Origin: Bacillota bacterium
GTDB taxonomy: Bacteria > Bacillota > JACPQU01
Assembly (NCBI GenBank): GCA_016190305.1
Contig: JACPQU010000121.1
Coordinates: forward strand, 1 to 44,959
Direction of reading: 5' to 3'
DNA length: 44,959 bases
The notes under the pieces were generated by a model. It saw only the letters and a program-made list of their open reading frames with translations, searched no databases and was not told the origin of the DNA. Position numbers and translations under genes: made by a program. Shown here piece after piece: positions 1,749 to 44,590 of this stretch. Each line of letters begins with the position of its first letter. Position 1 is the stretch's first letter.

Positions 1749-3917
1749 ATGCGGAGGAAAACCGTCATCGGGCTATTGATCTCAGCGGCGATCACGACCG
1801 CCTTGATCATCACGATGAACACGACCGATCCGGGTCGTGCGGATCCTACCGAAAGATCCCCTGCCCTCCAACCGGCCGGCGGATACCCGGCAGGCGCAGG
1901 CGAGATCCCATCCGCTCCCCCCGCCGGCGAACACCTTGCCGGAGATATGCTCTCCTCCCCACCCGGCGGCGAATACGCCGGGATCGTCTACCAAGGCTAC
2001 CTCTTGAAGACCCTGTGGGAGAACGAGTGGGGCTGGAACATCCCCCTGCTGGCCAAGGAACTGGACATGACCTTCAACGTTCTGGAACCGGAAGAGGACC
2101 CCAGGTTCATCGATTCCCTGGTTCCTGTTGACTTCGCCTTGGAAAGGGGTGGAGTCAAGCTCACCTTCAAGGGTGATGTCGAGCGCCTGAGTGATCCCAG
2201 GTACCTGAGCATCCCGGAGACCGCCGGTCTTTCATATTCGGCGTTCAAAGATTCGCGCGTAGTGGAGATGAAAAAAGATCCCCTGACCTACCGCACCGCC
2301 GGGCCCTACGGGGATTTGAACGAACTGCTCGATATGCTTGAGGTGTCCTATTTTCAAGATGGTCCGACCATCTACCTGGACGCCCGAGGCAAGACCCCGA
2401 TCCTGGGCAAGAAACTGGCTCAAGCAAGTGTCGGGATCGGGGAAGGTCTCCATCAGCTCTCCTTGGAGCTTCTGTACGATTACAAGGGTGAAAACAACCC
2501 GGGATACAAGAGGATCCGGCTCCTGGTCAGCGGAGCCGGCGGGGACCGGGAGCTGACGGTGTTCGACGAGCGGAACCCGGGAAGTTCGATGTATTATCGG
2601 GACGGGAGCATTGAGCGAATCAGCTACCAGGGGGATGAGTTGGTCCAGCTCAACCTCGGTATGGATACCGTCGTGTTTCTCCATCGCGCCGGCGAGTTGA
2701 TCAAGATCTTTTCACCAGAAGATTACCGGCGGTTCCTCGGTGGTAACCTCGTGCTGGAAACGGATCAAGTAGGGAACGCTGTTTTCGTGGACCGGTTCAA
2801 CGGGTTCCAAAAGGCGCTGGGACCGGTAGGGTCGCCCCCCAACTCCAGCTACGACTTGCACGTCATCAGCTTCGGAAGAATCACGGAAGACATCCCGAGC
2901 CGAAAGTTGAAGTTGATCGCCGATGCCGGCGCGGTCCACGAGGGACGGCATCTTTTCCTTGTTCAGATCGAGTTCGTCTATGAACAAGACCGGCAAGGAA
3001 GCCCTGGATTCACCCCCGTCAGGATCCATGCCACCGACTGGGCAAAGTTTGATCAGGACAAACGGGACGGGAAGCCCATCCGTTCTATGGAAGAGTACCG
3101 GCTGTTCGATTATGAAATCTCCGATGAGGCGAAAGTCAGAAGCCTGGTCGAAGCTTTCGGCCGGAAGCTCCAGGCGGTCCCGCTTCTGGCCCCTAAAGGC
3201 ATCCTCGACAGGAGCATGCAGGAGAACTACGGAAACCTCGTCTCTCCCGAACTTCTCGGGCAATGGCAGGACGACCCTTTGAACGCCCCCGGGAAAACGA
3301 CTTCCAGCCCATGGCCGGATCGGATTGAAATCCTTCAAATAAAAAAATCCTCAGGGGACGCGTATGAAGTCAGCGGCGAGATTATTGAAATAACCAGCAC
3401 GGAACAGGCAAGCGGCGGGGTGGCAGCCAGGCGGCCGATCACGCTCCTGGTGGATAAAATCGAAACCCGCCGGCTCATCGTCGCCGCCACCCTCGGCGCG
3501 TACGCGGAAAGCGGCTCCGTTGTGTACAGGAACACCCGGTATGGTTTCAGTTTTTCCTTACCGGGCAAGTGGAAAGACCATTCGATCATCACCAGCGGGT
3601 GGGAGGGCATCGCTCTCACAGGTTCAAAAACCGGTGAGGCCGTGGAGACCGGCCCGACTATCTCCATCAGGCATCCTGATTGGACTTCCCGGAACCCGCG
3701 ACAGGATATCCCGATCATGGTCTTCACGCTCACCCAGTGGAATTCGCTTCAGCGGGGAGAGGTCAGCGTCGGAGCGGCGCCGATCGGGCCAAGTGAACTG
3801 GCCCGCAACGCCAGGTATGTTTTCGCGCTTCCGGCACGATACAACTATGCCTTCCCGACCGGATACGAAGAGGTGGAAATAATTTTACAGGGCAATCCGC
3901 TCCGGCCAATCGATTAA
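1749..3917 (+). CDS. Hypothetical N-terminally anchored or secreted protein, 722 aa; I recognise no domain
   Basis: Long ORF with GC3-rich codon usage. GGAG lies 9 nt upstream of the ATG. The N-terminal hydrophobic segment is VIGLLISAAITTALIITM. The protein is globular-looking and non-repetitive (C-terminal YRNTRYGFSFSLPGKWKDHSII...). The overlapping minus-strand ORFs are Arg/Pro-rich shadows. Confidence 0.8.
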   Translation: MRRKTVIGLLISAAITTALIITMNTTDPGRADPTERSPALQPAGGYPAGAGEIPSAPPAGEHLAGDMLSSPPGGEYAGIVYQGYLLKTLWENEWGWNIPLLAKELDMTFNVLEPEEDPRFIDSLVPVDFALERGGVKLTFKGDVERLSDPRYLSIPETAGLSYSAFKDSRVVEMKKDPLTYRTAGPYGDLNELLDMLEVSYFQDGPTIYLDARGKTPILGKKLAQASVGIGEGLHQLSLELLYDYKGENNPGYKRIRLLVSGAGGDRELTVFDERNPGSSMYYRDGSIERISYQGDELVQLNLGMDTVVFLHRAGELIKIFSPEDYRRFLGGNLVLETDQVGNAVFVDRFNGFQKALGPVGSPPNSSYDLHVISFGRITEDIPSRKLKLIADAGAVHEGRHLFLVQIEFVYEQDRQGSPGFTPVRIHATDWAKFDQDKRDGKPIRSMEEYRLFDYEISDEAKVRSLVEAFGRKLQAVPLLAPKGILDRSMQENYGNLVSPELLGQWQDDPLNAPGKTTSSPWPDRIEILQIKKSSGDAYEVSGEIIEITSTEQASGGVAARRPITLLVDKIETRRLIVAATLGAYAESGSVVYRNTRYGFSFSLPGKWKDHSIITSGWEGIALTGSKTGEAVETGPTISIRHPDWTSRNPRQDIPIMVFTLTQWNSLQRGEVSVGAAPIGPSELARNARYVFALPARYNYAFPTGYEEVEIILQGNPLRPID

Positions 3918-4438: not shown

Positions 4439-4816
4439 TCACGCGGGGATCTTCCCCTCGATCTCCTGCCAGGCTCCCCGCAGTTCTTCGAGGATGTTCC
4501 GCACCTCCGCCAGAGGCGAGGCTTCCTTTTTCATATTGGCCTCGACCAGCTTCTGCTGGACATACTCGTAGATCGCCGCCATCTTAGCGGCGACCTCACC
4601 GGCGGATGAGTCGAGGTTTTCCTGAAGAACCTGAACGGCTTCCTGCACCGCCAGGATCGCCCGGTGGGCCCCCTCACGATGCTCTGAATCCGTCAGGCCG
4701 CTGGCCACGGCGGCCCGACGCAAGGCTTCCTGGTAGACAAGGAGCACCAAACGGACCGGGCTTGCGGTAAAAACCTGCGTTTGAAGATATTGTGCTTGAA
4801 GGGATCCCATCATCAA
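4439..4816 (-). CDS. fliS: Flagellar export chaperone FliS
   Basis: 125 aa. FliS signature N-terminus: YLQTQVFTASPVRLVLLVYQEALRR. Sits immediately downstream of fliD. Confidence 0.93.
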   Translation of the reverse strand: MMMGSLQAQYLQTQVFTASPVRLVLLVYQEALRRAAVASGLTDSEHREGAHRAILAVQEAVQVLQENLDSSAGEVAAKMAAIYEYVQQKLVEANMKKEASPLAEVRNILEELRGAWQEIEGKIPA

Positions 4817-4889: not shown

Positions 4890-6236
4890 CTACTGTCCTT
4901 TGTTCGAGCCGGTTCCCCACCCGAGTTCCACGCTCTGGCCCTGCAGGATCGCCAGTGAGCGTTCCAGGGCCACGAACTGCCTGGTCAGGTTCTGCTCCCG
5001 TAACTGGAGCCGGTAATCCAGATCTCGGATCCTGGTCTGGACGTTCTTGATCCGGGCCGTCAAGCCGTCCTCCTTGGCCGGGATCAAGGCGTTCTCGGCG
5101 TCGATGAGCAGGTCCAGGTAGGATTCCAGCTTCTCGCCCACCCCGTCGATCCCGGCGTCCTCGTGAAACAGGAGATCCTCCACCGTGGCGGGGGCATTCT
5201 TGAGGGCCTGCTCCAGCTTGGCCGTATCGATGGCGAGAGTATGGCCGCGCCCGGTGGTCCCGATCCCCGCATCGATTAGGGCCTGGTATGTCCCGCTCAT
5301 CCCGGTGACCTTTCCGGATACGAACTGGCGCAGGTTCATTCGGATCCGCATCAGCGTCACGTCCCCGGCCAGCTTCCCCTTTTCCCCGAGGGCGGTGTCG
5401 ATCAAGTCCATGGCGGAATTATACTGGTCGGTGAATTGGCGGATGGCTTCCGTGGCCGTTCCGGGATCATCCTCGACCTTGAGGACGACGGGCGCGGCGG
5501 AGCCCGCCAGCAGGTGCAGGGTTACCCCGGGGATCACGTCGTCGGGATCGTTGTTGGCGCGGGTCACGCTCAGCCCGTCCACCGTGAAGGCGGCGTCCCG
5601 GGCCGCAGCCATCTCGTTCTTGAGCACCTTGCTCCCGCCTTGGTCCACCAGAACTCCCAGAGATTCCAGGATCAGGGTCGACGGGTCGTCCAGGACGGCC
5701 ATCGTCCCGGCAGCTCCCACGGTATCGCTGGTGAGAACCAGGCGGTTGTCGATGATCGAGGCGGTCACCCCGATGCCCGCAATCCCATTGATCTCATCGC
5801 GGATGTCCGTCAGGGAATCGGCGGCGCCGACCGTAATGTCCGCGCCGTTGAGCGAAAAGGTACCGGCCAGATTCAGGGCCGCGGCGCGATCGGCCTGCCG
5901 GTCCGAGGCCGCCCTGTGGGCCTCGGCCAGGTTCGTCACAGTGACGAAATACGAGGCCTTGGCCGCCGTCGAGCCGGCCTCCGCCTTCAGGACGGTCTCG
6001 TCGGCGCTGGACGTCTTCCGGGCCCCGAATACACCCTGATCCTTCAGGTCATCAAGGCGGGACTGGAGCGTTTCCAGCCGGGAGCGAATGTCCTTCCAGG
6101 CATTCCGGCGTTCGTCCAGCCGGGTCTCCTGTGACCTGGCCTTTTCAACCGGCCGGCGCTCGAGCTTGACGATCTCCTGGATCAACGCCTTCCAGTCCAG
6201 ACCAGAACCGATCCCGCTGATGTTCAACATGGCCAC
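4890..6236 (-). CDS. fliD: Flagellar filament cap protein FliD (hook-associated protein 2)
   Basis: N-terminus ISGIGSGLDWKALIQEIVKLERRPV and C-terminal coiled coil (RIRDLDYRLQLREQNLTRQFVALERSLAILQ), both typical of FliD. The ATG at 6230 has better SD spacing (GAGGAG plus 8 nt) than the GTG at 6236. Confidence 0.95.
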   Translation of the reverse strand: MAMLNISGIGSGLDWKALIQEIVKLERRPVEKARSQETRLDERRNAWKDIRSRLETLQSRLDDLKDQGVFGARKTSSADETVLKAEAGSTAAKASYFVTVTNLAEAHRAASDRQADRAAALNLAGTFSLNGADITVGAADSLTDIRDEINGIAGIGVTASIIDNRLVLTSDTVGAAGTMAVLDDPSTLILESLGVLVDQGGSKVLKNEMAAARDAAFTVDGLSVTRANNDPDDVIPGVTLHLLAGSAAPVVLKVEDDPGTATEAIRQFTDQYNSAMDLIDTALGEKGKLAGDVTLMRIRMNLRQFVSGKVTGMSGTYQALIDAGIGTTGRGHTLAIDTAKLEQALKNAPATVEDLLFHEDAGIDGVGEKLESYLDLLIDAENALIPAKEDGLTARIKNVQTRIRDLDYRLQLREQNLTRQFVALERSLAILQGQSVELGWGTGSNKGQ

Positions 6237-6242
6237 CGCTCC

Positions 6243-9200
6243 TCACCCCTTTCCGCCGATGCCGGCCTCGAGGGCCTCGTGCGCCCCGACCAGCAGATCG
6301 GCGTGCGGCGCCCTGCGGATCCCTTCCTTCAGCACCTCCAGCGCCTCTATCCGCCGCTCCGCCTCTGTCAGGCAGGCCGCTAGGGAAGCGTAATAGGGGG
6401 CGTGATCGGGCTGCAGTTCAAGGGCCCTCCGCCAGAAGTCGGCCGCCTCCTCGTGGAAGCCCCGTTCCGCGGCAATCTCTGCCAGGAGGGCGCAGGCCTC
6501 GCCGTCGTAAGACCCTGATTCCAGGGCTTTCAGCAGTTCCTCCGCCGCCGACTCCCGGTAGCCATGCCGGCCGTAGATCTTGCCGAGACGGAGATTGCGC
6601 TCTTCGTCAGGAACACCGAATACGGTCAGAAGACGGAGCGCACATCCGAAAACATCGAACTCTTTAAGGATCAGCAGCCTCTCCAGGACTCCCCAGACCG
6701 CCTCCCGGATCCCCGGTTCGGCCGTCTCCCGGATCTGCGATCCGCCCACCTTTCCCTTGGTAACGCCCTGCCTGGCTCCGTTGAGACTCTCCTTGGAACC
6801 GGACAGATCCTCCCCACCGATCTGACCTTCTCCATTTGATGCGCTTGCAACCTGGAAGTCGCCGCGCTCGAGGATTTCAACCAAAACGAGGTAGGCCTCC
6901 GCTTCCGGCCCGTTCCCCTCTTCCTCGGCCATGAGCAAGGAACGTCTGGCAAGGTCCCGGCGGCCGGAGAGCATCTCGCACAGCCCTTTCCCCACCAGGG
7001 CCTCCGCAAACCCCGGGCTGGAAGAAGGCACTGACGTGAACTCGGCGGATCCCTCTGCATATCTTCCCATCAGCGTATAGACGTGTCCCCTGACCAGCCT
7101 GAGCCGAGACCCGGAGGCTCCCTCCGCCCAGCGGCCGGCTGCCGAGCAATCTCTCCGGGCCCGCTCGGTACAATCCAGGGCCTCCTCGGCGTAACCCTCC
7201 CCGGCCAGGACCAGCGCCAGCTCAGTAAAGAACGCCGGGTTGGGCCCGGGCACCAGGCGTTCCAGGAAGGCCAGCACCTCTTCCACCCGGCTTCCCGCCA
7301 GCAACAGGCGGGTAAGCCTGATCAAGGCCCAGGTCCAGTTGGGTTCCGCACGCAGGGCCTGGGTGTATGCCCGGCAGGCATAGGGTGCGTCCCCCAGGGC
7401 CTCGCAGCACTCCCCGAGCCCGTGCCAGGCACGGAAGGTGCCCACCCCCCTCTGGGTAACGTAGTTCAAGGGGGCTTCGCCGAGGGATAAACACTCCCGG
7501 AAGGTTTTCTCCGCCTCGGTATAGCTGTTGAGGTTTTGGAAAACCAGGGCCCGAAGGTAATAAAGATCCGTATACGCGGGATAAGCCTTCACACCATCGG
7601 CGAGCACCGACAGGGCTTCCTGGTAACGTCCCAGGGAGCGCAGGCAAAGGGCGATGTTCCGCACCAGGAGCGAGGCGTAGGCCATGTCGAGGGATCCCAG
7701 GTACTTGAAGGACTGCTGGTAGTGCCGGAGCGCGACCTCCGCCTCCCCGAGCCTGGTGTACTCCACGCCCAGGTTGAAGTGGAGAAAGCTGTCCCGCGGC
7801 TGGCGTTTCTCCTGGGCCTTGAGAATCTCCAGGTTCCGCTGGATCTTGGCCTTCTCCCGGGTGGGCCGGTTGAGATACCCGTAGTGATTGATCCGGACGG
7901 TGGAAAACCCGATCCTGCCCCCGTTCTGCTGGACGCTGGGCACGATCTGCTCGTGGAGGGTCCCGCGGAACCTGTACTCCAGCCGGTTGCGAAAGAGGCG
8001 GAAGGTGGCGTTGATCACAGCCTCCGCGCCGGGGGTTTCCCCGATGAAGTTGATCTCGTTCAGGTAGTGGCCCTCAAGCCCTTCGTCGTAGAGGAGGTCC
8101 CGGAGCCGGAAATGATCCTCGCCGACCAGTTCCTCGTCGGCATCCAGGAAGAGGATCCAGTCCCCCGACGCCTTTGACAGGGAGGCGTTCCGGGCGGAAC
8201 TGAAGTCCCCATGCCAAGGGATCCGGTAGACCTTGGCCCCGTAGCGCTCCGCCGTCTCGACCGTCCGGTCGGCGGAACCCGTATCCACCACGATGATCTC
8301 GTCCACCACCCCCATCACGCGGTCCAGGCAGCGCGGCAGGTTGTCCTCTTCGTCCCTGACGATCATGCAAAGACTCAAGGCGGGACGAGCCGGGTCGCTC
8401 TTCGTACGGGGGACCCCGGTGGCAGCAAGGGGCCTCCCGCCATCCGTCCCGCTCGTTCCCGCACCGGCGGCGGGCATCCTGATGCCTGCCGGAGACATCC
8501 CGGTTCGGACGGGAGGCATCGCGCTCAGAGCGAGAGACGCCCCCGCATCGGCTGAAACCCGAGGATCTTCGCGATAAGCCCCGGGGCGCTGCGTCCAGCA
8601 CCACGGCCGCGGCCCCATGACCTCTTCCCAGAGGGCCCGCTCCAGGCGATCAACCACCCTGTCCCATCGATAAGCCGCCACCGAACCGGGGGCCGCCTGG
8701 GCCAGCCGGTTCCGGAGAGCTCCGTTGCTAAGAAGCCGGCGCAGGGCCTCCGACATGGCCGGCACATCCCTGACCGGAACCACGAGGCCGTTCACGCCGT
8801 CGCGCACATACTCGCTCACCCCCGGGGTCGCGGTGGTGATCACGGCGGTACCGCAGGCCATGGCCTCGGCGACGGGGAGGCAGAAAGACTCGTAGTAGGA
8901 AGCGCTGACAAGGATATCGGCGGAACGGTAAAGCCCTCCCAGTTCCCCGGGATCGGGATTGACCGCCACCCGGAGCGGAAAGGGCAGGGCCGGAAGACGA
9001 TCCGGCCGGGACGGAGTCACCCAGACCACTTCAAATTGCTCACCGGATGCCGCCGCCGTCTCCAGGGCCTGAAAGGCCTCCTGAACCCCCTTGAAGGGGA
9101 ACTCCGCCCTGGCCACGAGGAGCACCCGCGGACGGCTCCGCCGGACCTTCGGACGTGGATAGAAGTGATCGTGGTCGATGGCGCTGCCCAGGTTGACGGC

Positions 9201-11810
9201 GGCCCGCCCGTAGCGCCCGCCGATGATCTCCTCCAAGGCCCTGGAGATCACGTGGATGGACACCGGGGCCTCGTGTACCCGGTCGGCCACATGTTGCACC
9301 CGGTGGCTGTAACCCCTCGTCCGGAGACCGGCTTCGTTCTCAAACAGGTATCGATCACCCTGGGCCAGGTAAACCGGGACTGCCCCGGGAACCAGGGCCA
9401 GCTCGTGAAGCTGGGTCCAAAAGGAGGCCACGAGGACGTCGCATAAACCGCAAAACTCGGCCAAGCCGGTGGAAAGGGGCACCTGGAAGAACTCCCCCTT
9501 CAAGGGAAACCACCGGGGGCTACCGAAATGGGAGAGCACCCTGACCGAATGCCCTTTCTCCTGAAGGCGGTTGACGTGCTCGAAGAGGACCCTGGCCCCG
9601 CCGGTGAGACCGGTCCCTCCGACCAGGCAGGCCACCTGGAGGGAAAGACCCAGCCGGAGAGCCGTTTCTACCTTGCGGGCCCGCCAGATTTCCAGCGAAA
9701 ACGGGTTAAAGAGGCGCCGGTCGGCTTCACTCGCGCATCCGGCCGCTTCTTCCGAAACCAGTCTTATACTGACCATGGCGGCCTTGTCGTCCGGGTTCCA
9801 GGCCAGGGCCCTCCGGTAGAACACCTCCGCGTCTTGGAGTTCACCCAGGATCACCCTGGCATCCCCCAGGGCCACCAGGACCCGGGCCAGGCCCCATCCC
9901 CCTCCGAAGGATACCCGGAAGCCAGGGCCGCCGGCGCTATGTGACCTGCAGTTCTCCTCGATCATCCCGGCCGCTTTCTCCAGCGCTCCGGCCGCTTCCC
10001 GCGTTCTTCCGCAGGCCAGGAGAGCCAGCCCCAGGTTATAGTGGAAGCCTGGTTCCTTTTCGGTATCTTCATGCCCGGCCAGGCTGGTCAAGCTCTCCAG
10101 GGCATCCCCAGCCCGGCCGTCCAGAAGCCCGGCTGCCGCCTTCTCAATTTCTTGATCCGCCGGGCTCATGGCCGACCACCGTTCTTCCTGAGCGAGGATT
10201 TCCCGGGAAAGGAGGATGTCCCCCAGCCTGGAGGCCACCTCGTTGATCTCCTCCCCGGCCATTCCCTGATCTCCGCTTACCCGCGAGTGGCCGCCTGCTT
10301 CCGCTTCACCGCCGCTTGTAACCGGACCGCCGGCCTCTTCCACGTTGCAGGCGGCACCGGCCCCGGCGATTTCGGCAAATTCAACGACCTCTGCAACCTC
10401 AACAGCCTCAGCAAATTCAGGGACCTCGGCGACCTCTCCGCTCTCCTTCTTGGTTGGAACCTCTCCGGGATCGCCGGCTTCCCCGAACTTTTCGGTTCCT
10501 CCAGCCAATTCGGTTTCTCCGGCCTCTCCAGCCTCCCCGGTCTCTCCGGCCGCTCCGCTCTCTTTCTCCTTGTCTGCCTTCCCCGCTTCGCCGGCTTGCC
10601 CGGAACTCCGGAGCGCTTCCCCGATCAATCCATCCATCGCCTCCCATCGTGCCTGCCAGGAATTTCGCTCCGCGAAGGCCCTCCGCTTGCCGCAGGCATC
10701 TTCTCCATCTTCCCGGATGGCCCTCTCCGCAGCTTCAATGAAACCTTCAACCCCCTCAGCGGAGTACCACAACGGTGTCCTCACACCCAGGTCCGGGATC
10801 CCGGAGATGATCACCGGCTTCCCGCAAGCCAGATACTCGTACAGCTTGATGGGGTCCGCCGCCCCGCTCAGGCGACCGCCCTTGAAAGGGATGGTCGCCA
10901 CGTCGAAGGCTCCGATATATGAAGGGAGTTCCTCGTGGGGTTTGCGGCCCAGCCAGGCAACGTTCCCCGGGAAATGCCCCTGGGGAAGAGGGACCAACAG
11001 GGGACCGACGACAGCGATGCTCCAGTCCGGCCGGGCGAGGGCGACCTGCCGGATCATGTCCAGATCCACCCAAGAGGCGACAGCTCCTGCGAAACCGATT
11101 ACCGGCGGCTTGAGGGACCTCATGTCGGCGGGGGCTAAGGCCCCTGGAACAAACTGGGCCGGGTCCACGCCGTTGGCGACCAGGTGCACATGCGGGTTAA
11201 AAGGGGCCTTCTCCAGCCGCAATCTCTCCGAGGTGGTGATCACCAGGTCCGACTCGCGCAGAATGATCTGCTCCGTGCGCTCCGCCGCCTCCTGGTACTC
11301 CGGAGGGAAGAATTGGGCCAGGTCGTCCACGCAGTCGAAAACCGTCGCCCGGCTGCCCAGCTTTCCTATGCAGTTCCACCATCCCAGCCAGTAGATCACG
11401 GTGACGTGATTCCGCCAGCCCAGACGGGCCAGGACCTCGCGGAGGAAAGAAATGGTCAAATCGTAGATCCCCGTGGAGAGATCGGGCAGTTCCATCTTCA
11501 CCTGCCGCACCGGGTCCAGGACGCGAAGGTTCGGCCCAACCCGGAGGAGGAACCGATCCAGACCTTCTCCCGCCAGGGCCGACTTCAACTTGTCCCAGGC
11601 CCGGTCCGCCCCGATCATGCCGGCGCGCTCCCGCCCGGCGTCTTCCACGTTAAAGGGCGCAGGCGTGGAGTTCACGTACAGCACAGGGTGGCCCGAGGCG
11701 GCGAAAAGGGACATCAACTGCTGGGGGCGCTGCCACAGGTCATTCCAGTCGATCGAGCCCAGGCAGATCACCTCGTAGGGGTATTCGACCCGCTGCTTCT
11801 TTCTTGCCAC
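6243..11810 (-). CDS. 1855-aa multidomain protein: GT-B glycosyltransferase, acidic repeat linker, TPR, GT1/GT4 glycosyltransferase, GT2 (GT-A) glycosyltransferase, long TPR array. Putative flagellin glycosylation enzyme.
   Basis: One uninterrupted ORF. GTG start with AAAGGGGTG upstream; the stop is 6 nt before fliD. Approximate domains by motif: aa 13-400 (nt 11774-10610) VICLGSIDWNDLWQRPQQL...FDCVDDL; aa 735-1085 (nt 9605-8555) ...SYYESFCLPVAEAMACGTAVITT..EYVRDGVNGLVV (GT1 EX7E region); from about aa 1142 (nt 8385 downward) LSLCMIVRDEEDNLPRCLD..IIVVDTGSADRT..LFLDADEEL (GT2 DxD). The GT2 domain is followed by many TPR-like repeats. Confidence 0.9.
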   Translation of the reverse strand: MARKKQRVEYPYEVICLGSIDWNDLWQRPQQLMSLFAASGHPVLYVNSTPAPFNVEDAGRERAGMIGADRAWDKLKSALAGEGLDRFLLRVGPNLRVLDPVRQVKMELPDLSTGIYDLTISFLREVLARLGWRNHVTVIYWLGWWNCIGKLGSRATVFDCVDDLAQFFPPEYQEAAERTEQIILRESDLVITTSERLRLEKAPFNPHVHLVANGVDPAQFVPGALAPADMRSLKPPVIGFAGAVASWVDLDMIRQVALARPDWSIAVVGPLLVPLPQGHFPGNVAWLGRKPHEELPSYIGAFDVATIPFKGGRLSGAADPIKLYEYLACGKPVIISGIPDLGVRTPLWYSAEGVEGFIEAAERAIREDGEDACGKRRAFAERNSWQARWEAMDGLIGEALRSSGQAGEAGKADKEKESGAAGETGEAGEAGETELAGGTEKFGEAGDPGEVPTKKESGEVAEVPEFAEAVEVAEVVEFAEIAGAGAACNVEEAGGPVTSGGEAEAGGHSRVSGDQGMAGEEINEVASRLGDILLSREILAQEERWSAMSPADQEIEKAAAGLLDGRAGDALESLTSLAGHEDTEKEPGFHYNLGLALLACGRTREAAGALEKAAGMIEENCRSHSAGGPGFRVSFGGGWGLARVLVALGDARVILGELQDAEVFYRRALAWNPDDKAAMVSIRLVSEEAAGCASEADRRLFNPFSLEIWRARKVETALRLGLSLQVACLVGGTGLTGGARVLFEHVNRLQEKGHSVRVLSHFGSPRWFPLKGEFFQVPLSTGLAEFCGLCDVLVASFWTQLHELALVPGAVPVYLAQGDRYLFENEAGLRTRGYSHRVQHVADRVHEAPVSIHVISRALEEIIGGRYGRAAVNLGSAIDHDHFYPRPKVRRSRPRVLLVARAEFPFKGVQEAFQALETAAASGEQFEVVWVTPSRPDRLPALPFPLRVAVNPDPGELGGLYRSADILVSASYYESFCLPVAEAMACGTAVITTATPGVSEYVRDGVNGLVVPVRDVPAMSEALRRLLSNGALRNRLAQAAPGSVAAYRWDRVVDRLERALWEEVMGPRPWCWTQRPGAYREDPRVSADAGASLALSAMPPVRTGMSPAGIRMPAAGAGTSGTDGGRPLAATGVPRTKSDPARPALSLCMIVRDEEDNLPRCLDRVMGVVDEIIVVDTGSADRTVETAERYGAKVYRIPWHGDFSSARNASLSKASGDWILFLDADEELVGEDHFRLRDLLYDEGLEGHYLNEINFIGETPGAEAVINATFRLFRNRLEYRFRGTLHEQIVPSVQQNGGRIGFSTVRINHYGYLNRPTREKAKIQRNLEILKAQEKRQPRDSFLHFNLGVEYTRLGEAEVALRHYQQSFKYLGSLDMAYASLLVRNIALCLRSLGRYQEALSVLADGVKAYPAYTDLYYLRALVFQNLNSYTEAEKTFRECLSLGEAPLNYVTQRGVGTFRAWHGLGECCEALGDAPYACRAYTQALRAEPNWTWALIRLTRLLLAGSRVEEVLAFLERLVPGPNPAFFTELALVLAGEGYAEEALDCTERARRDCSAAGRWAEGASGSRLRLVRGHVYTLMGRYAEGSAEFTSVPSSSPGFAEALVGKGLCEMLSGRRDLARRSLLMAEEEGNGPEAEAYLVLVEILERGDFQVASASNGEGQIGGEDLSGSKESLNGARQGVTKGKVGGSQIRETAEPGIREAVWGVLERLLILKEFDVFGCALRLLTVFGVPDEERNLRLGKIYGRHGYRESAAEELLKALESGSYDGEACALLAEIAAERGFHEEAADFWRRALELQPDHAPYYASLAACLTEAERRIEALEVLKEGIRRAPHADLLVGAHEALEAGIGGKG
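10340..10620 (-). repeat. Low-complexity acidic Glu/Ala/Gly/Val repeat linker inside the glycosyltransferase megaprotein (approximate bounds)
   Basis: Encodes GEAGKADKEKESGAAGETGEAGEAGETELAGGTEKFGEAGDPGEV..EVAEVPEFAEAVEVAEVVEFAEIAG. Imperfect nucleotide repeats are visible. Confidence 0.7.
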
Positions 11811-11898
11811 CTGGAACCACCCCTTTCCGGTTTTAACTTCAGAAATTCATCCGGCTTCCGGCTTCTTCCAGCTTCGATATTATTGATTCTGATAAGGA

Positions 11899-11937
11899 GG
11901 GCCGATCCCGGGAACCTAGCTCTCCCGAGACCGGCCC
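11899..11937 (-). terminator. Stem-loop downstream of flagellin (candidate intrinsic terminator)
   Basis: Minus strand reads GGGCCGGTCTCGGGA-GAGCTAGGT-TCCCGGGATCGGCCC: a 15-bp stem with two G-U pairs and a 9-nt loop. It lies about 80 nt after the fliC stop. The following tract (TCCTTATCAGAATC) is only weakly U-rich. Confidence 0.5.
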
Positions 11938-12016
11938 GTGGCTGGGGACTAACCCTATAATTGACTCTGGAGTGCTCGCTTCACCTATCCCTGAACTTCG
12001 GGCCGAACCATCCGTT

Positions 12017-12841
12017 TTAGCTCAAGAGCTTGAGGACGGATTGGGGCGTTACGTTGGCCTGCGCGAGAACCGAGGTGCCGGCCTGCTGCAGGATCTGCAG
12101 TTTGGTGAAGTTGACCATCTCCATCGCCATATCCACGTCGCGGATCCGCGATTCGGACGCCTGGAGGTTCTCCGACGCCGTGCCCAGATTGGCGATGGTA
12201 TGCTCGAGGCGGTTCTGAATGGCTCCCAGGCCTGCCCGGATATTGGAGACCTCGGTGATGGCGGAATCGAGGCTGGCCACCGCGTCGTTGGCCAGACTGG
12301 TGCTGCCGACGCTGATCCCGGTGATGGTCAGAGCCGCCGCCGTGGCGGTGGCGATGGTGACCGCGATGGTCTGGCCGGTATTGGCCCCGACCTGGAAGTT
12401 GAGCGCGGTCGTGGCCGCGGAACCGTCGAGCAGGTTTCTGCTGTTGAACTGGGTGCTGCTGGCGATCCGATTGACCTCCGATAGAAGGCTGTCAATCTCC
12501 TTTTGGATGGAGGACCGGTCGCCCGCCGTAAGGGTATCGTTGGCGGCCTGCACCGCCAGTTCGCGCATCCTCTGGAGGATGTTGTTCGTCTCGTAGAGGG
12601 CGCCTTCCGCCGTCTGAAGCAGCGAGATCCCGTCCTGAGCGTTGCGCACCGCCTGTCCGATCCCGCGCACCTGGCTCCTCAGCTTTTCCGAGATGGCCAG
12701 GCCCGCGGCGTCATCCGAAGCCTTGTTGATCCGGAGGCCCGAGGAGAGCCTCTCCATCGATTTGCTCAGCCGGCTGCTGTTGACCAAGAGGCTTCGATGG
12801 GCGTTAACCGCTTCGATGTTGCTGTTGATCCGGAAACCCAT
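12017..12841 (-). CDS. fliC: Flagellin (short, 274 aa)
   Basis: MGFRINSNIEAVNAHRSL..LSSGLRINKASDDAAGLAISEKLRSQVRGIGQAVRNAQDGISLLQTAEGAL at the N-terminus. SRIRDVDMAMEMVNFTKLQILQQAGTSVLAQAN at the C-terminus. Strong SD (AGGAGAGGAGGAG). Confidence 0.97.
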   Translation of the reverse strand: MGFRINSNIEAVNAHRSLLVNSSRLSKSMERLSSGLRINKASDDAAGLAISEKLRSQVRGIGQAVRNAQDGISLLQTAEGALYETNNILQRMRELAVQAANDTLTAGDRSSIQKEIDSLLSEVNRIASSTQFNSRNLLDGSAATTALNFQVGANTGQTIAVTIATATAAALTITGISVGSTSLANDAVASLDSAITEVSNIRAGLGAIQNRLEHTIANLGTASENLQASESRIRDVDMAMEMVNFTKLQILQQAGTSVLAQANVTPQSVLKLLS

Positions 12842-13083
12842 TTCCTTCTCCTCCTCTCCTTGAACTTCGCCCGGTCTCTCCGGGCCGGATTTTCCTGTGG
12901 TGGACGGCCGGCCGAACCGTCCATCCGTAACGGCCGTGTTCCACGGTACCGCCGTCTAATCAGATCATCGACAATCGGGGGGTGATTGTTTAGGGACGGA
13001 TTCGCTGAGCCACCCCCTCCCGGATCGAAGCAGCCAGACCCTTGATCCTGTAAAGTTCCTATACGTATTATTAGATTTACATT

Positions 13084-13111
13084 AGATCGGATCATTAACA
13101 CTTGACATTTA
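13084..13111 (-). promoter_or_regulatory. Candidate sigma-28 (FliA/SigD) promoter for flagellin
   Basis: Minus strand TAAA (13111-13108), 16-nt spacer, TCCGATCT (13091-13084). Same architecture as the flgM candidate at 16811-16838. Consensus remembered as TAAA-N15-GCCGATAA. Confidence 0.5.
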
Positions 13112-13153
13112 TGCTTGATATTTTGTAGGCTTGGCACATATTGGCGAATAAAT

Positions 13154-13176
13154 CCATCCGGCCGAAGGCGGGCTGG
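13154..13176 (-). terminator. Possible intrinsic terminator ending the flgM-flgL transcript
   Basis: Minus strand CCAGCCCGCC-TTCG-GCCGGATGG (10-bp stem with two mismatches, UUCG loop) followed by ATTTATTCG. It lies just upstream of the flagellin promoter candidate. Confidence 0.35.
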
Positions 13177-13506
13177 AGATTTCGGGAGGTAATACGGGGA
13201 TAACCAAGGGGAGAGGTTGACCCTTATGAGAATGTGATAGCGAGGTAGAGGGTTCAGGTTATACCAACTCTAAGGATGCTGTTCCATTTTGGGCACATTT
13301 ACACTGACTTTAATAACCAGTGGGAAAATCGAAACGTAAGACTTAGATTGAGCCCTTGACCTCGAACAAGAAAACAAAGAGGGGAGAAGGTAGTCTTGAT
13401 GGAGCGTTGCAAAACCAGAAGTTTCAATAGAAATTGAATCAAACCGAGACCTGAATACAACACCTATCAATCAATAATGATAAATTGGAATGGACGCTGC
13501 CACAGT

Positions 13507-14391
13507 TCAAGCAAGAAAATCAAGAAGACTCATGTCCATGATCCTGGATGCGGCACCCAGGGCGGCTCGGTAGGAGTTTTGCTCGGCCTGGAACTCAACC
13601 AGGACCTCCGCCAGGTCCACATCTTGAATCTTGCTCAGGAGCATCTTGTAACCGGCCTGGAGATCCTCAAGCCGATCACCCGTTCTCTCCAGCCGGTTCA
13701 ACCGGGCGCCCAGTTCGATCCTTGATTCCACCACCCTGTCCAGGGCGGCGTCGAGATCCCCCAGGGCGCCCTGGATCTCTCCCAAGCCGTCATTCCGCAG
13801 GGCCGCCTCCAGCCTGGAGACGGCTTCTAAGGCAGGCGAGAGGGCCCGGTCCCCGGTGACGTTCACCATGATAGTTCGGCCGCTCCCGATGGGCCTGGCG
13901 ATCCCGTCGCCGTCCCCTTCGTAGCTCGCCTCCCGCGGGTCGGTACCGGTCTGGACGAAGGGCGGAGCGGTGGTGCGGCGGCCCCCGAAGAGATAACGTC
14001 CCAGCAATTCCTGGTTACCCGTCTCCAGCAGCCCTGAGAAGATCTCTCGGGCTTCCGCCGCCATATTCCGGCGGTCGCCCGCCGCGATCGTATCGTTGGC
14101 ACCCTGAACGGCCAGCTCCCGCGCCCTCTGAAGAAGGTCCGCCGCTCCCGACAAGGCCTGCTCGGTGCTTTCCATCCAGTTCCGGGCCTCGGCGATCAAG
14201 ACCAGGTGCCTCTCGCCGGCCGCGATGTTCGAGGACAGGCGCATCCCCTCCGCCACCGCCATCGGATCGTCGGAGGGCTTGGTCAGCCGGCTGCCGGAGG
14301 CCAGGCGGTCCTGGAGCTCGGCCAGGCGTTGCCGCCCCCGCGACAGGTCCCCGATCAACCGGTCATTGATCATCCCCTGGGTGATCCGCAT
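13507..14391 (-). CDS. flgL: Flagellar hook-associated protein 3, FlgL
   Basis: MRITQGMINDRLIGDLSRGRQRLAELQDRLASGSRLTKPSDDP, a flagellin-like N-terminus. C-terminus DVDLAEVLVEFQAEQNSYRAAL. Follows flgK. Confidence 0.93.
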   Translation of the reverse strand: MRITQGMINDRLIGDLSRGRQRLAELQDRLASGSRLTKPSDDPMAVAEGMRLSSNIAAGERHLVLIAEARNWMESTEQALSGAADLLQRARELAVQGANDTIAAGDRRNMAAEAREIFSGLLETGNQELLGRYLFGGRRTTAPPFVQTGTDPREASYEGDGDGIARPIGSGRTIMVNVTGDRALSPALEAVSRLEAALRNDGLGEIQGALGDLDAALDRVVESRIELGARLNRLERTGDRLEDLQAGYKMLLSKIQDVDLAEVLVEFQAEQNSYRAALGAASRIMDMSLLDFLA

Positions 14392-26729: not shown

Positions 26730-27917
26730 CTAACTGAAACTGCCCACCAGGGATTGCACCACCAGGTGCCACCCGTCCACCAGGACGAACAGGAGAACTT
26801 TAAACGGGAGGGAGATCATCACCGGGGGCAGCATCAGCATTCCCATCGACATGAGGGTGCTGGCCACGATCATGTCGATCATGATGAAGGGAACGTAGAT
26901 CATGAATCCGATCTGGAAGGCGGTCTTCAACTCGCTGATCACGAAGGCCGGCACCACCAGGTGGGTGGGTACCTGGTCGGGTCCGTCAGCCTCCTCGATC
27001 CCGCCCATGCCCATGAAGAGGGCCAGGTCCTTCTCCCTGGTCTGGCGCAGCATGAAACCCCGCACCGGCTCCGACGCCGCCGCCAGGGCGGCCTCGGAGC
27101 TCATCCCCCCTTGCAGGTAAGGCTGCAGGGCGTTCTCGTTGACCTGCCCCCAGACGGGCGCCATGACCCCAAGGCTGACGAACAGGGCCAGACCCACCAG
27201 CACCTGGTTGGGCGGCACCTGCTGGGTTCCCAGGGCGTTCCGGACGAAGGAGAGGACCACCACGATCCGGGTGAAGGAGGTCATCAGGATCAGGATGGCA
27301 GGGGCAAGGGAAAGAACCGTCAGAGCCAGCAGGATCTGGACGGCCCCCGCAACTTCGCGTGGCTCCTCGGTCGGGGTGATCCCCAGTTCCAGCCGCGGCA
27401 GGGGCAGGGGGGCGGCGTGAGCGGTTGAGACATCAATGAGTCCCAGAAGGGCCCCCGCCAGGAGGATCCCGATCAGGAATCCCAGGCAGCCCGGCCCCTT
27501 TTTCTTCACTTCCCGGCGCAACAGACTCCCCGCCTTCGCCAGGGCCTCCCGGAAGGGGGCGGACAGGGAATCGGGGATGCCGGCGCCGGCAGGGTTGGCG
27601 GCGAGGTCATCGCCGGGACCATGGCCGATTTCCGTGCCGGGACCCTCATCTGGGTCCATCCCCTCCAACTCCTCCGGAGTCAGGGTCGCAAGCAGGTTCA
27701 CCCTCCGGTCCGATACCCCCAGGAGCAGGAGCCGCCGGGCCCCCACCTGCGCCAGGCACAGGCTCTTACCCGGGCCGAGGGGAGTGACCTCGCGGATCCT
27801 GATATGGCGGCCGCCGGACAACCGGCGCAACCGGTGCCCGAGGCCCCGGGCGGTGAAGTAGGCCAGGCCGATGATCAAGACGGAAAACAGCAGGAACTTT
27901 GCCAGATCCCAGGCCAA
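26730..27917 (-). CDS. fliP: FliO-like N-terminal module fused in frame to FliP
   Basis: aa 1-95: one TM helix plus IREVTPLGPGKSLCLAQVGARRLLLLGVSDRRVNLLATL (FliO/FliZ-like). Then a linker, a second hydrophobic signal-like helix, and FliP core motifs (LTVLSLAPAILILMTSFTRIVVVLSFVRNALGTQQVPPNQVLVGLALF ... FKTAFQIGFMIYVPFIMIDMIVAS). Confidence 0.9.
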   Translation of the reverse strand: MAWDLAKFLLFSVLIIGLAYFTARGLGHRLRRLSGGRHIRIREVTPLGPGKSLCLAQVGARRLLLLGVSDRRVNLLATLTPEELEGMDPDEGPGTEIGHGPGDDLAANPAGAGIPDSLSAPFREALAKAGSLLRREVKKKGPGCLGFLIGILLAGALLGLIDVSTAHAAPLPLPRLELGITPTEEPREVAGAVQILLALTVLSLAPAILILMTSFTRIVVVLSFVRNALGTQQVPPNQVLVGLALFVSLGVMAPVWGQVNENALQPYLQGGMSSEAALAAASEPVRGFMLRQTREKDLALFMGMGGIEEADGPDQVPTHLVVPAFVISELKTAFQIGFMIYVPFIMIDMIVASTLMSMGMLMLPPVMISLPFKVLLFVLVDGWHLVVQSLVGSFS

Positions 27918-42914: not shown

Positions 42915-43292
42915 CTACAGGGGCATCCGCATGATCTCCTGGTAGGCTTCGAGGATCTTGTTCCGGATCTGGAGGGCGAGCTGGAGGGAGAGGTCCGCTT
43001 TCTCAGCCGTCAACACGACCTCGTGCAGATCCTCCACCCTTCCGGAAGCCACCTCCATGGCGCCCTGATCGGCCTTCAACTGCCAATCGTTGACCTCGGC
43101 CAGGGCGTTCTTCAGCACCTCTCCAAAGGATTCCGAACCCCCTTCGATCCTTCCCGAGGGGCGGGTTCCCAGTAAGGGGCTCCCCGTGCCCCACCAGGTG
43201 GAACCGTTCACGCCTGAAACCGCCAAGGTTCGATCGCTCCCCGCGTATGGCCGGATAATGTAAAATCTTAAAAAGTTCAATAAATACCTCAT
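42915..43292 (-). CDS. fliE: Flagellar hook-basal body protein FliE
   Basis: C-terminal FGEVLKNALAEVNDWQLKADQGAMEVASGRVEDLHEVVLTAEKADLSLQLALQIRNKILEAYQEIMRMPL. The first ~22 codons of the track ORF lie in AT-rich sequence with no SD. The TTG at 43226 (GGGGAG 10 nt upstream) is the more likely start. Confidence 0.88.
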   Translation of the reverse strand: MRYLLNFLRFYIIRPYAGSDRTLAVSGVNGSTWWGTGSPLLGTRPSGRIEGGSESFGEVLKNALAEVNDWQLKADQGAMEVASGRVEDLHEVVLTAEKADLSLQLALQIRNKILEAYQEIMRMPL

Positions 43293-43410
43293 TTATCGGC
43301 TCTATCTTTACGATATAATTAGTGAACAGTGGTCACCGGGACGGTGCGGCAAAGCTGGCGAGCTTTGACGCTCGCAACTCCACCGGCACCGTCCACAGAC
43401 CAGACCGAAC

Positions 43411-43860
43411 TCAGGCGCGTCCCATCTCCAGGGTTCGGAGCGCCGTCTCCTTGGCAGTGTTGAAGACGGCGAGGTTGGCCTCGTAGGCCCGGGTCGCGGC
43501 AAGCAGGTCGATCATCTCGGCAACCAGGTCGACGTTGGGCAGAAGGACGTTTCCGTCCGCGCCCGCTTGTGGGTGGCCAGGATCGTAGAGGATTCTAGGG
43601 GGCGATGGATCCCGAACGATGGCGGCGACTTGAACTCCGCCTTCAAAAACAGGCAGAGCCTCCTGTCCACCCGACAGGAGTCTGGCAAAGAGGGAGGTCT
43701 CCTTCCGCGGGGCTAAAATGGGCAGCTGCCGTTGGTAGGGACCTCCTTCTACCGTCCTGGTAGAATCGAGGTTTGCCATGTTATTGGCGACCAGATCCAG
43801 CCTCAGTCTTTGGGCCGCGAGGCCGGAGGCGCTCACGTCCAGAAGTCCGAAGAGGCTCAT
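43411..43860 (-). CDS. flgC: Flagellar basal-body rod protein FlgC
   Basis: SASGLAAQRLRLDLVANNMANLDSTRT..GGPYQRQ and C-terminal NVDLVAEMIDLLAATRAYEANLAVFNTAKE. Confidence 0.96.
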   Translation of the reverse strand: MSLFGLLDVSASGLAAQRLRLDLVANNMANLDSTRTVEGGPYQRQLPILAPRKETSLFARLLSGGQEALPVFEGGVQVAAIVRDPSPPRILYDPGHPQAGADGNVLLPNVDLVAEMIDLLAATRAYEANLAVFNTAKETALRTLEMGRA

Positions 43861-44489: not shown

Positions 44490-44590
44490 TCTTCCGTCGG
44501 TAGCCCGGCCATCCTTACGGATCCGTGGCTTTGCGCCCCCGCCTTTCGACGGGTTTGCCTTTTCGGGAAGCTCCCACAACGTGCTTCAGT
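44490..44590 (-). promoter_or_regulatory. c-di-GMP-I (GEMM-I) riboswitch aptamer
   Basis: Minus strand AAAAGGCAAACC-CGUC-GAAA-GGCG-GGGGCGCAAAGCC-ACGGAUCCGUAAGGAUGGCCG-GGCUACCGACGG. Hallmark GEMM-I blocks are present: GCAAACC, a GNRA-capped hairpin, GGxCGCAAAGCC, and 3' GGGYUACCGAYGG. Compare V. cholerae Vc2 as I recall it: GGGCAAACCAUUCGAAAGAGUGGGACGCAAAGCC...GGGGUUACCGAUGG. Confidence 0.8.

Follow-up and report, generated by a model that had tools for sequence, protein, structure and literature searches.

A 1855-residue protein joining two GT-B glycosyltransferase domains to a GmaR-like unit, encoded between flagellin and fliD in a Bacillota bacterium

The giant gene and its immediate neighbours

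The stretch of DNA analysed here (the window, 44,959 nucleotides) is contig JACPQU010000121.1 of a Bacillota bacterium (assembly GCA_016190305.1). On its minus strand, between the genes for flagellin and for the filament cap FliD, lies an open reading frame (ORF; 6243..11810, stop codon 6243-6245) that encodes a protein of 1855 aa (202 kDa, pI 5.3). This protein, the giant GT, combines three glycosyltransferase (GT) domains with tetratricopeptide repeats (TPRs). An original prediction, made from the letters of the DNA, had described three GT domains in one uninterrupted chain, with TPR blocks between and after them, and parsing with Pfam recovered all of these elements. The N-terminal GT domain is identified by PF13692, NF047676 and an AlphaFold2 model, the central one by PF00534 and an EX7E motif, and the third by PF00535 and a DAD motif, whereas the TPR blocks fall at aa ~545-705, 1346-1700 and 1735-1855. 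None of the 19-residue windows along the chain reaches the hydrophobicity of a membrane helix, and the protein is predicted to be soluble.

The ORF begins with GTG, has a ribosome-binding site (RBS), AAAGGGGTG, 7 nt 5' of this start codon, and ends with TGA. Its frame is open throughout, and codon position 3 is the GC-richest in 29 of 36 sliding windows; in the remaining seven, located round two linkers and aa 1651-1750, position 1 is the richest. Window positions 9525-13082, which span flagellin and aa 1-762 and cross the first linker, are matched with 100% identity by a Logan contig from read set SRR12113390, and positions 5425-6800 (aa ~1671-1855 and the fliD junction) equally by a second one, from read set SRR12113401. 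Three relatives, P0050, P0051 and P0059, are likewise continuous ORFs through the equivalent GT4-GT2-TPR region. The uninterrupted reading frame of the original prediction looks real. That it arose as an assembly or sequencing artefact, or as a recent pseudo-fusion of two or three genes, is extremely unlikely in view of the open frame, the position-3 pattern, the identical contigs and the continuous relatives, although both linkers are of low complexity and lack the position-3 signal, and positions 6801-9524 in the middle of the ORF are covered by neither Logan contig and are known from a single assembly. In an exact look-up the giant protein and FliD had no record; only flagellin and a C-terminal fragment were matched, both on short Logan contigs.

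The gene directly upstream (12017..12841, minus strand) encodes a flagellin of 274 aa (Flagellin_N, E = 3e-49; Flagellin_C, E = 9e-32), the presumed acceptor. It had been called short and Ser/Thr-rich; it is short, but its Ser and Thr content is only moderately high, at 19.3% overall and 28.6% in a 56-aa central segment (~aa 140-195) that is rich in Thr, Ser and Ala. Directly downstream, FliD (4890..6236, minus strand) starts 6 nt after the stop codon of the giant gene if the first possible start (GTG) is used, which agrees with the spacing given originally, or 12 nt after it at the next ATG. Because of these short distances, and because a GGAG-rich RBS for fliD overlaps the stop codon, fliD is probably translationally coupled to the giant gene.

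A GmaR-like unit at the C terminus

The C-terminal part of the protein opens with a GT2 catalytic domain of the GmaR type (aa 1138-1345; 7776..8399, minus strand) with the GT-A fold, which contains the motifs DAD (1223-1225), HEQ (1286-1288) and HYGY. It matches PF00535 with E = 1e-20, and aa 1138-1335 match the GT domain of GmaR (22ao_A, among Protein Data Bank (PDB) sequences) with E = 4e-37. Across 42 orthologues, LDADEE, HEQ and HYGY do not vary. The domain is followed by a region of TPRs and helical repeats (TPRb, aa 1346-1700; 6711..7775, minus strand) that is homologous to the TPR and linker domains of GmaR (7x9r), and by a C-terminal TPR block (TPRc, aa 1735-1855; 6246..6608, minus strand; TPR_2, TPR_12). 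The latter belongs to a conserved GmaR-like unit of ~670 aa, being present in stand-alone orthologues of 674 aa and in P0050 and P0051.

Aligned by sequence, aa 1282-1541 match residues 141-637 of Listeria monocytogenes GmaR (7x9r) with E = 7e-17, and SunS matches more weakly (E = 2.5e-15). An AlphaFold2 model of aa 1138-1855, computed with the 42 orthologues, has a pLDDT of 90.2 and superposes in Foldseek on 7x9r with a TM score of 0.71 (normalised to the target) over 533 alignment columns, so that the whole helical region of GmaR is reproduced, beyond the TPRs. Sequence similarity extends to about residue 400 of GmaR; for the antirepressor domain the match lies in the fold and is not detectable in the sequence. 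By sequence and predicted structure, the last 718 aa are a full-length GmaR homologue. The part of the original prediction that likened the GT2 and TPRs to a flagellin O-glycosyltransferase of the GmaR kind is borne out by these matches, together with the conserved gene position described below. Stand-alone orthologues of ~670 aa ('TPR-containing GT2' proteins), known from Ammonifex, Thermodesulfitimonas, Thermanaeromonas, Moorella and others, share 43-47% identity with the entire 718-aa unit; they contain a single catalytic domain, in contrast to the three of the giant GT. The nearest orthologues with a named host belong to thermophilic Bacillota and reach only ~45% identity; along with the gene order and the RBS, the orthologues place the source organism (~65% GC) in the Bacillota.

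The likeness to GmaR raises the question of a regulatory role, additional or main, in which glycosylation would be tied to the expression of flagellar genes through the binding of a flagellar regulator or chaperone to the C-terminal helical domain. Moonlighting is known for GmaR, whose entire helical region, including the part that acts as antirepressor in Listeria, is matched in the model. Such a role is nevertheless quite unlikely. The antirepressor domain has left no detectable trace in the sequence, the window ORFs scanned against Pfam include no match to the MogR family, and reports of MogR are confined to Listeria and the B. cereus group (PMC7793685). Moreover, hundreds of stand-alone orthologues, spread over unrelated taxa, have kept the helical region, and substrate binding accounts for this better.

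Two other assignments were rejected. The score against the family of SunS-type peptide S-glycosyltransferases (TIGR04195) is 57.1 bits, compared with a cut-off of 350; the structural kinship with SunS and ThuS covers the GT2 domain and first repeats only. A nonulosonic-acid transferase of the Maf/FlmG kind was discounted, as no such family occurs among the 23 Pfam matches at E <= 0.01. Families of the Pse and Leg pathways were likewise absent from the window ORFs scanned against Pfam.

Two GT-B domains in the N-terminal two thirds

The N-terminal domain (aa 1-400; 10611..11810, minus strand) is of the TuaH-like 'WQRPQQ' type, with a retaining GT4-like GT-B fold. It matches PF13692 with E = 6e-7 (30.2 bits; cut-off 27) and the TuaH model NF047676 with E = 4e-22. 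With 78.6 bits it falls far short of the 550 bits required of a TuaH equivalog, and the domain is best described as a homologue within the same GT-B subfamily and not as an equivalog. Because the sequence evidence was the weakest among the domains, this one was modelled: an AlphaFold2 prediction based on an alignment of 24 homologues has a pLDDT of 87.9 and a pTM of 0.87, and its best Foldseek matches are the retaining GT4-type GT-B enzymes MshA, sucrose-phosphate synthase (SPS), PimB' and BshA. The residues that are invariant in the family (W22, D162, K322, E325 and others) are all present. Its nearest relatives are mostly stand-alone transferases of ~400 aa with 30-33% identity. One near relative, the fusion protein P0016, lies in a polysaccharide locus with an ABC transporter of the Wzm/Wzt type, and this location suggests that the N-terminal GT-B domain is a glycan-extending enzyme recruited into a flagellar protein.

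An acidic low-complexity linker rich in Glu, Ala and Gly (aa 401-544; 10179..10610, minus strand) follows; it contains short imperfect tandem repeats, and its frame is open with position 3 not the GC-richest. It leads into the first TPR block (TPRa, aa 545-705; 9696..10178, minus strand; TPR_2, E = 1.8e-9), which aligns with the TPR region N-terminal to GT4 in P0050 and P0051. The second GT-B domain (aa 715-1065; 8616..9668, minus strand) is a retaining GT4 enzyme by PF00534 (E = 8e-25; 87.8 bits, cut-off 26.4) and PF13692 (E = 7e-23), with an EX7E motif at E974-E982 and sequence matches in the PDB to SPS, MshA, PimA and BshA. A 'GT4-conflict' Pfam match (PF20706) was dismissed because it overlaps the generic GT4 match. 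The remaining linker (aa 1066-1137; 8400..8615, minus strand) is rich in Ala, Gly and Pro and stands where relatives have a SAM-methyltransferase domain. Of the three folds, for which an AlphaFold check was proposed with the original prediction, those of the N-terminal GT-B domain and the GmaR-like unit were modelled, and GT4 was assigned from sequence.

Relatives and the fused class

An exhaustive HMMER search of 1.84 billion representatives with aa 656-1855 returned 5388 proteins at E <= 1e-30. Domains were mapped in the best 150 of the 5388, a ranking that favours multi-domain proteins, so that the counts are not population frequencies. At least two GT catalytic domains were found in 103 of these 150 proteins, at least three in 30, and GT4 together with GT2 in 17, at lengths of up to 3735 aa. 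Where the multi-domain relatives carry labels at all, these are generic, such as 'glycosyltransferase' or 'tetratricopeptide repeat protein'. The database search for the same architecture therefore did retrieve fusions of three GT domains, but a TuaH-like GT-B domain was present in none of the 150.

The closest relatives, P0050 (1686 aa), P0051 (1725 aa) and the pair P0068/P0207 (1561/1565 aa), are 33-46% identical to the giant GT; for P0050 the identity is 46% over the GmaR-like unit and 33% over TPRa and GT4. All are laid out as GT2-TPR-GT4-SAM-methyltransferase-GmaR-like GT2-TPR-TPR and are colinear with the giant GT to the C terminus in BLASTP alignments. They differ from it in having an N-terminal GT2 domain and a SAM-methyltransferase between GT4 and GT2, whereas the giant GT has a TuaH-like GT-B domain and a plain linker at these places.

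The gene position is shared as well. The P0050 locus (L006) reads FlgM-FlgN-FlgK-FlgL-FliW-CsrA-flagellin (274 aa)-GT2 (226 aa)-P0050-FlaG-FliD-FliS-FliT, and the P0051 locus (L007) has, after FliW and CsrA, a flagellin of 276 aa, P0051, two further GT genes on the opposite strand, FlaG, FliD and FliS. The window flagellin is 77% identical to that of L006 and 65% identical to that of L007, including the short central segment rich in Thr, Ser and Ala. P0207 (locus L008) lies beside FliD, FliS, FlgB, FlgC, FliE and FliF, in a flagellar cluster at a position other than the flagellin-fliD slot. The separate 226-aa GT2 in L006 (7316-7996) is 32% identical over 100 aa to the GmaR-like GT2, has no TPR, and may be a split-off or degenerate initiating domain. 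It is not the unfused counterpart of the N-terminal GT2 of P0051, since it resembles the GmaR-like GT2, and the N terminus of P0050 itself aligns with the N-terminal GT2 of P0051.

Proteins with (GT2-TPR)x2 and (GT2-TPR)x3 in tandem are common among the relatives of the GmaR-like unit (P0052-P0199), and the source labels of tandem and giant relatives include Armatimonadota, Actinomycetota, cyanobacteria (Oscillatoriaceae) and a Thermoplasmata archaeon. In the flanks examined, no flagellar gene accompanies three giant multi-GT relatives, P0001, P0002 and P0149, which were therefore set aside as evidence for a flagellar role. P0149, the 3735-aa giant of the class (locus L009), stands next to dTDP-sugar and other sugar-nucleotide genes.

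The absence of flagellar genes beside these three giants bears on whether the product of the giant GT is a glycoconjugate unrelated to the flagellum, for example a glycan of the cell wall or S-layer, with its gene lying among flagellar genes by accident. The N-terminal domain resembles TuaH, an enzyme of teichuronic-acid synthesis, and its relative P0016 is placed in a polysaccharide locus. Even so, this explanation is very unlikely: the two closest relatives keep the flagellin-fliD slot and P0207 lies in a flagellar cluster, the core unit is GmaR-like, the protein lacks a membrane anchor, and the neighbouring genes scanned include neither a flippase nor a transporter.

Taken together, the giant GT has the colinear backbone, the extra N-terminal transferase and the flagellar locus that mark a fused class. 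This class of multi-GT proteins is real, widespread and apparently uncharacterised by experiment, and it is modular, with accessory domains exchanged between lineages (an N-terminal GT2 or GT-B; a methyltransferase present or absent) beside flagellins that are 65-77% identical. Literature searches, most of them aimed at flagellin glycosyltransferases, yielded no experimental description of a fused multi-GT flagellin transferase. The claim that the fusion was undescribed stands in this experimental sense only, for multi-GT fusions are common in databases and P0050 and P0051 have three GT domains in the same slot. What is new here is the exact domain set, not seen elsewhere in the searches run, whereas its components and logic are familiar. 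A scan of GTDB species representatives with the full protein gave two weak single-domain matches (L001, L002) and no close relative, and among the matches listed in a full-length word-indexed search for homologues only partial ones occurred, covering at most 21%.

A model for flagellin glycosylation

The predicted role in flagellin O-glycosylation is well founded, because of the homology to GmaR and because the position between flagellin and fliD is kept in the two closest relatives. Within this role, the giant GT is probably a soluble cytoplasmic enzyme in which the GmaR-like unit initiates and the two GT-B domains extend the product to a short O-linked oligosaccharide. The gene would be expressed together with the late flagellar genes for flagellin, fliD and fliS. 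The GmaR-like unit, an inverting GT-A domain with its repeats, would bind flagellin before export through these repeats and place the first sugar on Ser or Thr residues of the short central segment. This sugar would be an N-acetylhexosamine (HexNAc), if GmaR and GT1 of Clostridioides difficile are taken as guides. The TuaH-like and GT4 domains, both retaining, would then add the second and third sugars to this primer, so that a short O-linked oligosaccharide would be made without release of the substrate. Glycosylation in the cytoplasm before export fits the lack of a membrane segment. The analysis shows which domains are present, that their catalytic motifs are intact, and that the gene has a flagellar context with synteny conserved in relatives; which acceptor and sugars are used, in what order the domains act and whether they act processively is as we infer it.

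Several points weigh against this reading. The order of the steps and the identities of the sugars are guesses. The N-terminal GT-B domain clears its Pfam cut-off narrowly (30.2 against 27 bits), and its catalytic competence is putative. The single-assembly stretch in the middle of the ORF, described above, also belongs here. Finally, many relatives pair each GT2 domain with a TPR block of its own, as (GT2-TPR)n, and the GT-B domain at the N terminus of the giant GT likewise precedes a TPR block; one TPR block per GT is as compatible with independent transferases that each act on the protein as it is with elongation.

This last pattern leads to the main rival of sequential extension, namely that the catalytic domains act in parallel, each putting a different single sugar on different sites of flagellin or on other flagellar proteins (FliD, hook-associated proteins), with the TPRs selecting the sites. 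Tandem (GT2-TPR)x2 and x3 proteins, in which each catalytic unit has its own TPR, dominate the relatives, the N-terminal GT-B domain is followed by TPRa, and a 2026 survey (PMC13317340) cites Maf-1 and Maf-2 as paralogous flagellin transferases with different site specificity. However, no TPR block separates GT4 from GT2, which leaves GT4 without one of its own, the location of P0016 in a polysaccharide locus suggests sugar acceptors for the N-terminal GT-B domain, and the characterised multi-GT flagellin system of a Gram-positive bacterium, that of C. difficile, extends a chain. Parallel action is, on this evidence, unlikely.

Sequential extension can be taken one step further, to a 'glycan assembly line' in which the GmaR-like repeats would clamp flagellin while the three active sites build a defined trisaccharide, and in which swaps of accessory modules on a conserved initiating unit (a GT2 or a GT-B domain, a methyltransferase or none, GT domains numbering up to at least three) would reprogram the glycan by lineage. 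We put this forward tentatively, as a doubtful extension of the model. If true, it would be the counterpart in protein glycosylation of the modular logic of non-ribosomal peptide synthetases and polyketide synthases (NRPS/PKS); domain content would predict the glycan, and the system would be engineerable.

The surrounding flagellar cluster

Beyond FliD, the ORF at 4439..4816 (minus strand, 125 aa) is, by its position and sequence, probably the flagellin chaperone FliS, which occupies the same place in L006 and L007. The spacer of 206 nt between flagellin and the giant gene contains a GC-rich hairpin of 16 bp (11899..11937, minus strand), which is followed by UCCUUAUC and lacks a clear U-tract. 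A scan for consensus terminators on the minus strand between the two genes called none. In folding calculations the hairpin itself was strong, while the entire spacer folded no better than shuffled sequence (z = -0.59). The hairpin may be a leaky terminator, or a stabiliser of the flagellin mRNA that lowers expression of the giant gene.

Upstream, 16.8-42.8 kb of the window is a flagellar cluster of the Bacillota type that runs from FliF through FlgL. Its first part comprises FliF, FliG, FliH, FliI, FliK, FlgD, FlgE, MotA, MotB, FliM, a FliN-type C-ring protein and FliO-P, and its second part FliR, FlhB, FlhA, FlhF, a PilZ protein, a sigma-70-family factor, FapA, a rod protein, FlgM, a probable FlgN, FlgK and FlgL. 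Families of sugar-nucleotide pathways were found in none of the 29 larger window ORFs scanned against Pfam, as the original prediction had it; the 45-kb window says nothing of the remainder of the genome, and the use of common UDP-sugars suggested in the original prediction is conjectural.

The spacer between FlgL and flagellin (12842-13506, 665 bp) contains no convincing ORF, and FliW and CsrA, which stand at this position in L006 and L007, are absent from it; FlaG, which precedes FliD in those loci, is also missing. The GC content is 0.54 in the composition window 13001-14000, compared with ~0.65 for the whole window. An ORF of 395 aa (26730-27917, minus strand) has a FliO domain (aa 20-89) and a FliP domain (aa 199-390) and is an apparent FliO-FliP fusion. 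Directly beyond the late flagellar genes, on the plus strand (1749-3917), lies an ORF of 722 aa with a hydrophobic N terminus and no match in Pfam or NCBIfam.

At the 5' end of the minus-strand flagellar operon (44495-44568, minus strand) there is a c-di-GMP-I-GGC riboswitch aptamer (RF03167; 71.3 bits, gathering score 59, E = 4.7e-15), upstream of FliF and of small ORFs (42915-43502) that by position are possibly FlgB, FlgC and FliE. The match suggests that c-di-GMP controls flagellar gene expression here, and the placement of the aptamer resembles that of the Cd1 riboswitch, which precedes flgB in C. difficile.

Significance

The 2026 survey counts only seven Gram-positive genera in which flagellin is described as O-glycosylated, and it takes GT2 combined with TPRs as the signature of candidate flagellin transferases (PMC13317340). 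The assembly of multi-sugar flagellar glycans on the protein itself is known genetically for very few cases. The giant GT packs a predicted GmaR-type initiator and putative extenders into one soluble polypeptide beside the gene of the presumed substrate, an arrangement that is compact and could be moved into E. coli. The locus could serve to probe how TPRs select flagellin, whether extension is processive, and whether glycan structure can be predicted from domain content. Since 103 of the best 150 representatives are multi-GT proteins, in a ranking biased towards multi-domain proteins, a large class of enzymes is uncharacterised. No current idea is overturned, as only the combination of known parts is new.

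Comparison with known systems

A close known counterpart in layout is GmaR, the flagellin O-GlcNAc transferase of Listeria, which consists of four domains, namely glycosyltransferase, TPR, linker and antirepressor, with the TPR domain proposed to recognise flagellin (PMC9638930). GmaR of L. monocytogenes, a beta-O-GlcNAc transferase that uses UDP-GlcNAc to modify Ser/Thr of flagellin and a temperature-sensitive antirepressor of MogR (22ao, 7x9r), shares its layout with aa 1138-1855, and both proteins are encoded among flagellar genes. It has 637 aa and one catalytic domain, whereas the giant GT has 1137 extra residues with two GT-B domains and a further TPR block.

The eukaryotic enzymes OGT and SPINDLY likewise recognise their protein substrates through a TPR superhelix, and their TPR blocks match the giant GT by sequence and structure. 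Their catalytic domain is of family GT41, with one site, and not GT2 or GT4, so that the likeness is confined to the repeats. The capsule multienzyme of Actinobacillus pleuropneumoniae serotype 3 (8qoy), which ranks 27th among the structural matches of the N-terminal GT-B domain, shares the principle of several glycan-building catalytic domains in one chain. Multienzymes of this kind build polymers, with lipids or glycans as acceptors, where the giant GT would make a short glycan on a protein, and they are not known to have a GmaR-like unit or a flagellar context. Janesch et al. (2016) reportedly linked GT genes downstream of hag in Paenibacillus alvei to a flagellin trisaccharide.

The best functional analogue is the C. 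difficile system of GT1 (CD0240), GT2 and GT3, in which an initiating HexNAc transferase is followed by chain extenders; the comparison is one of function and gene position, and the giant GT would act like GmaR or CD0240 joined to such extenders. In type B strains the work is divided among several genes downstream of fliC whose products act one after another: GT1 attaches GlcNAc, GT2, a protein with a methyltransferase domain, attaches two rhamnoses, and the terminal moiety comes from GT3 (PMC5207246). These genes lie directly after fliC and are co-transcribed with it (PMC5207246), and the giant GT gene similarly adjoins a flagellin gene. The methyltransferase found in relatives of the giant GT parallels the methyltransferase domain of C. 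difficile GT2. In C. difficile, however, the transferases are encoded by separate genes, all with PF00535, whereas in the window they are fused in one polypeptide whose accessory domains are of the GT-B type.

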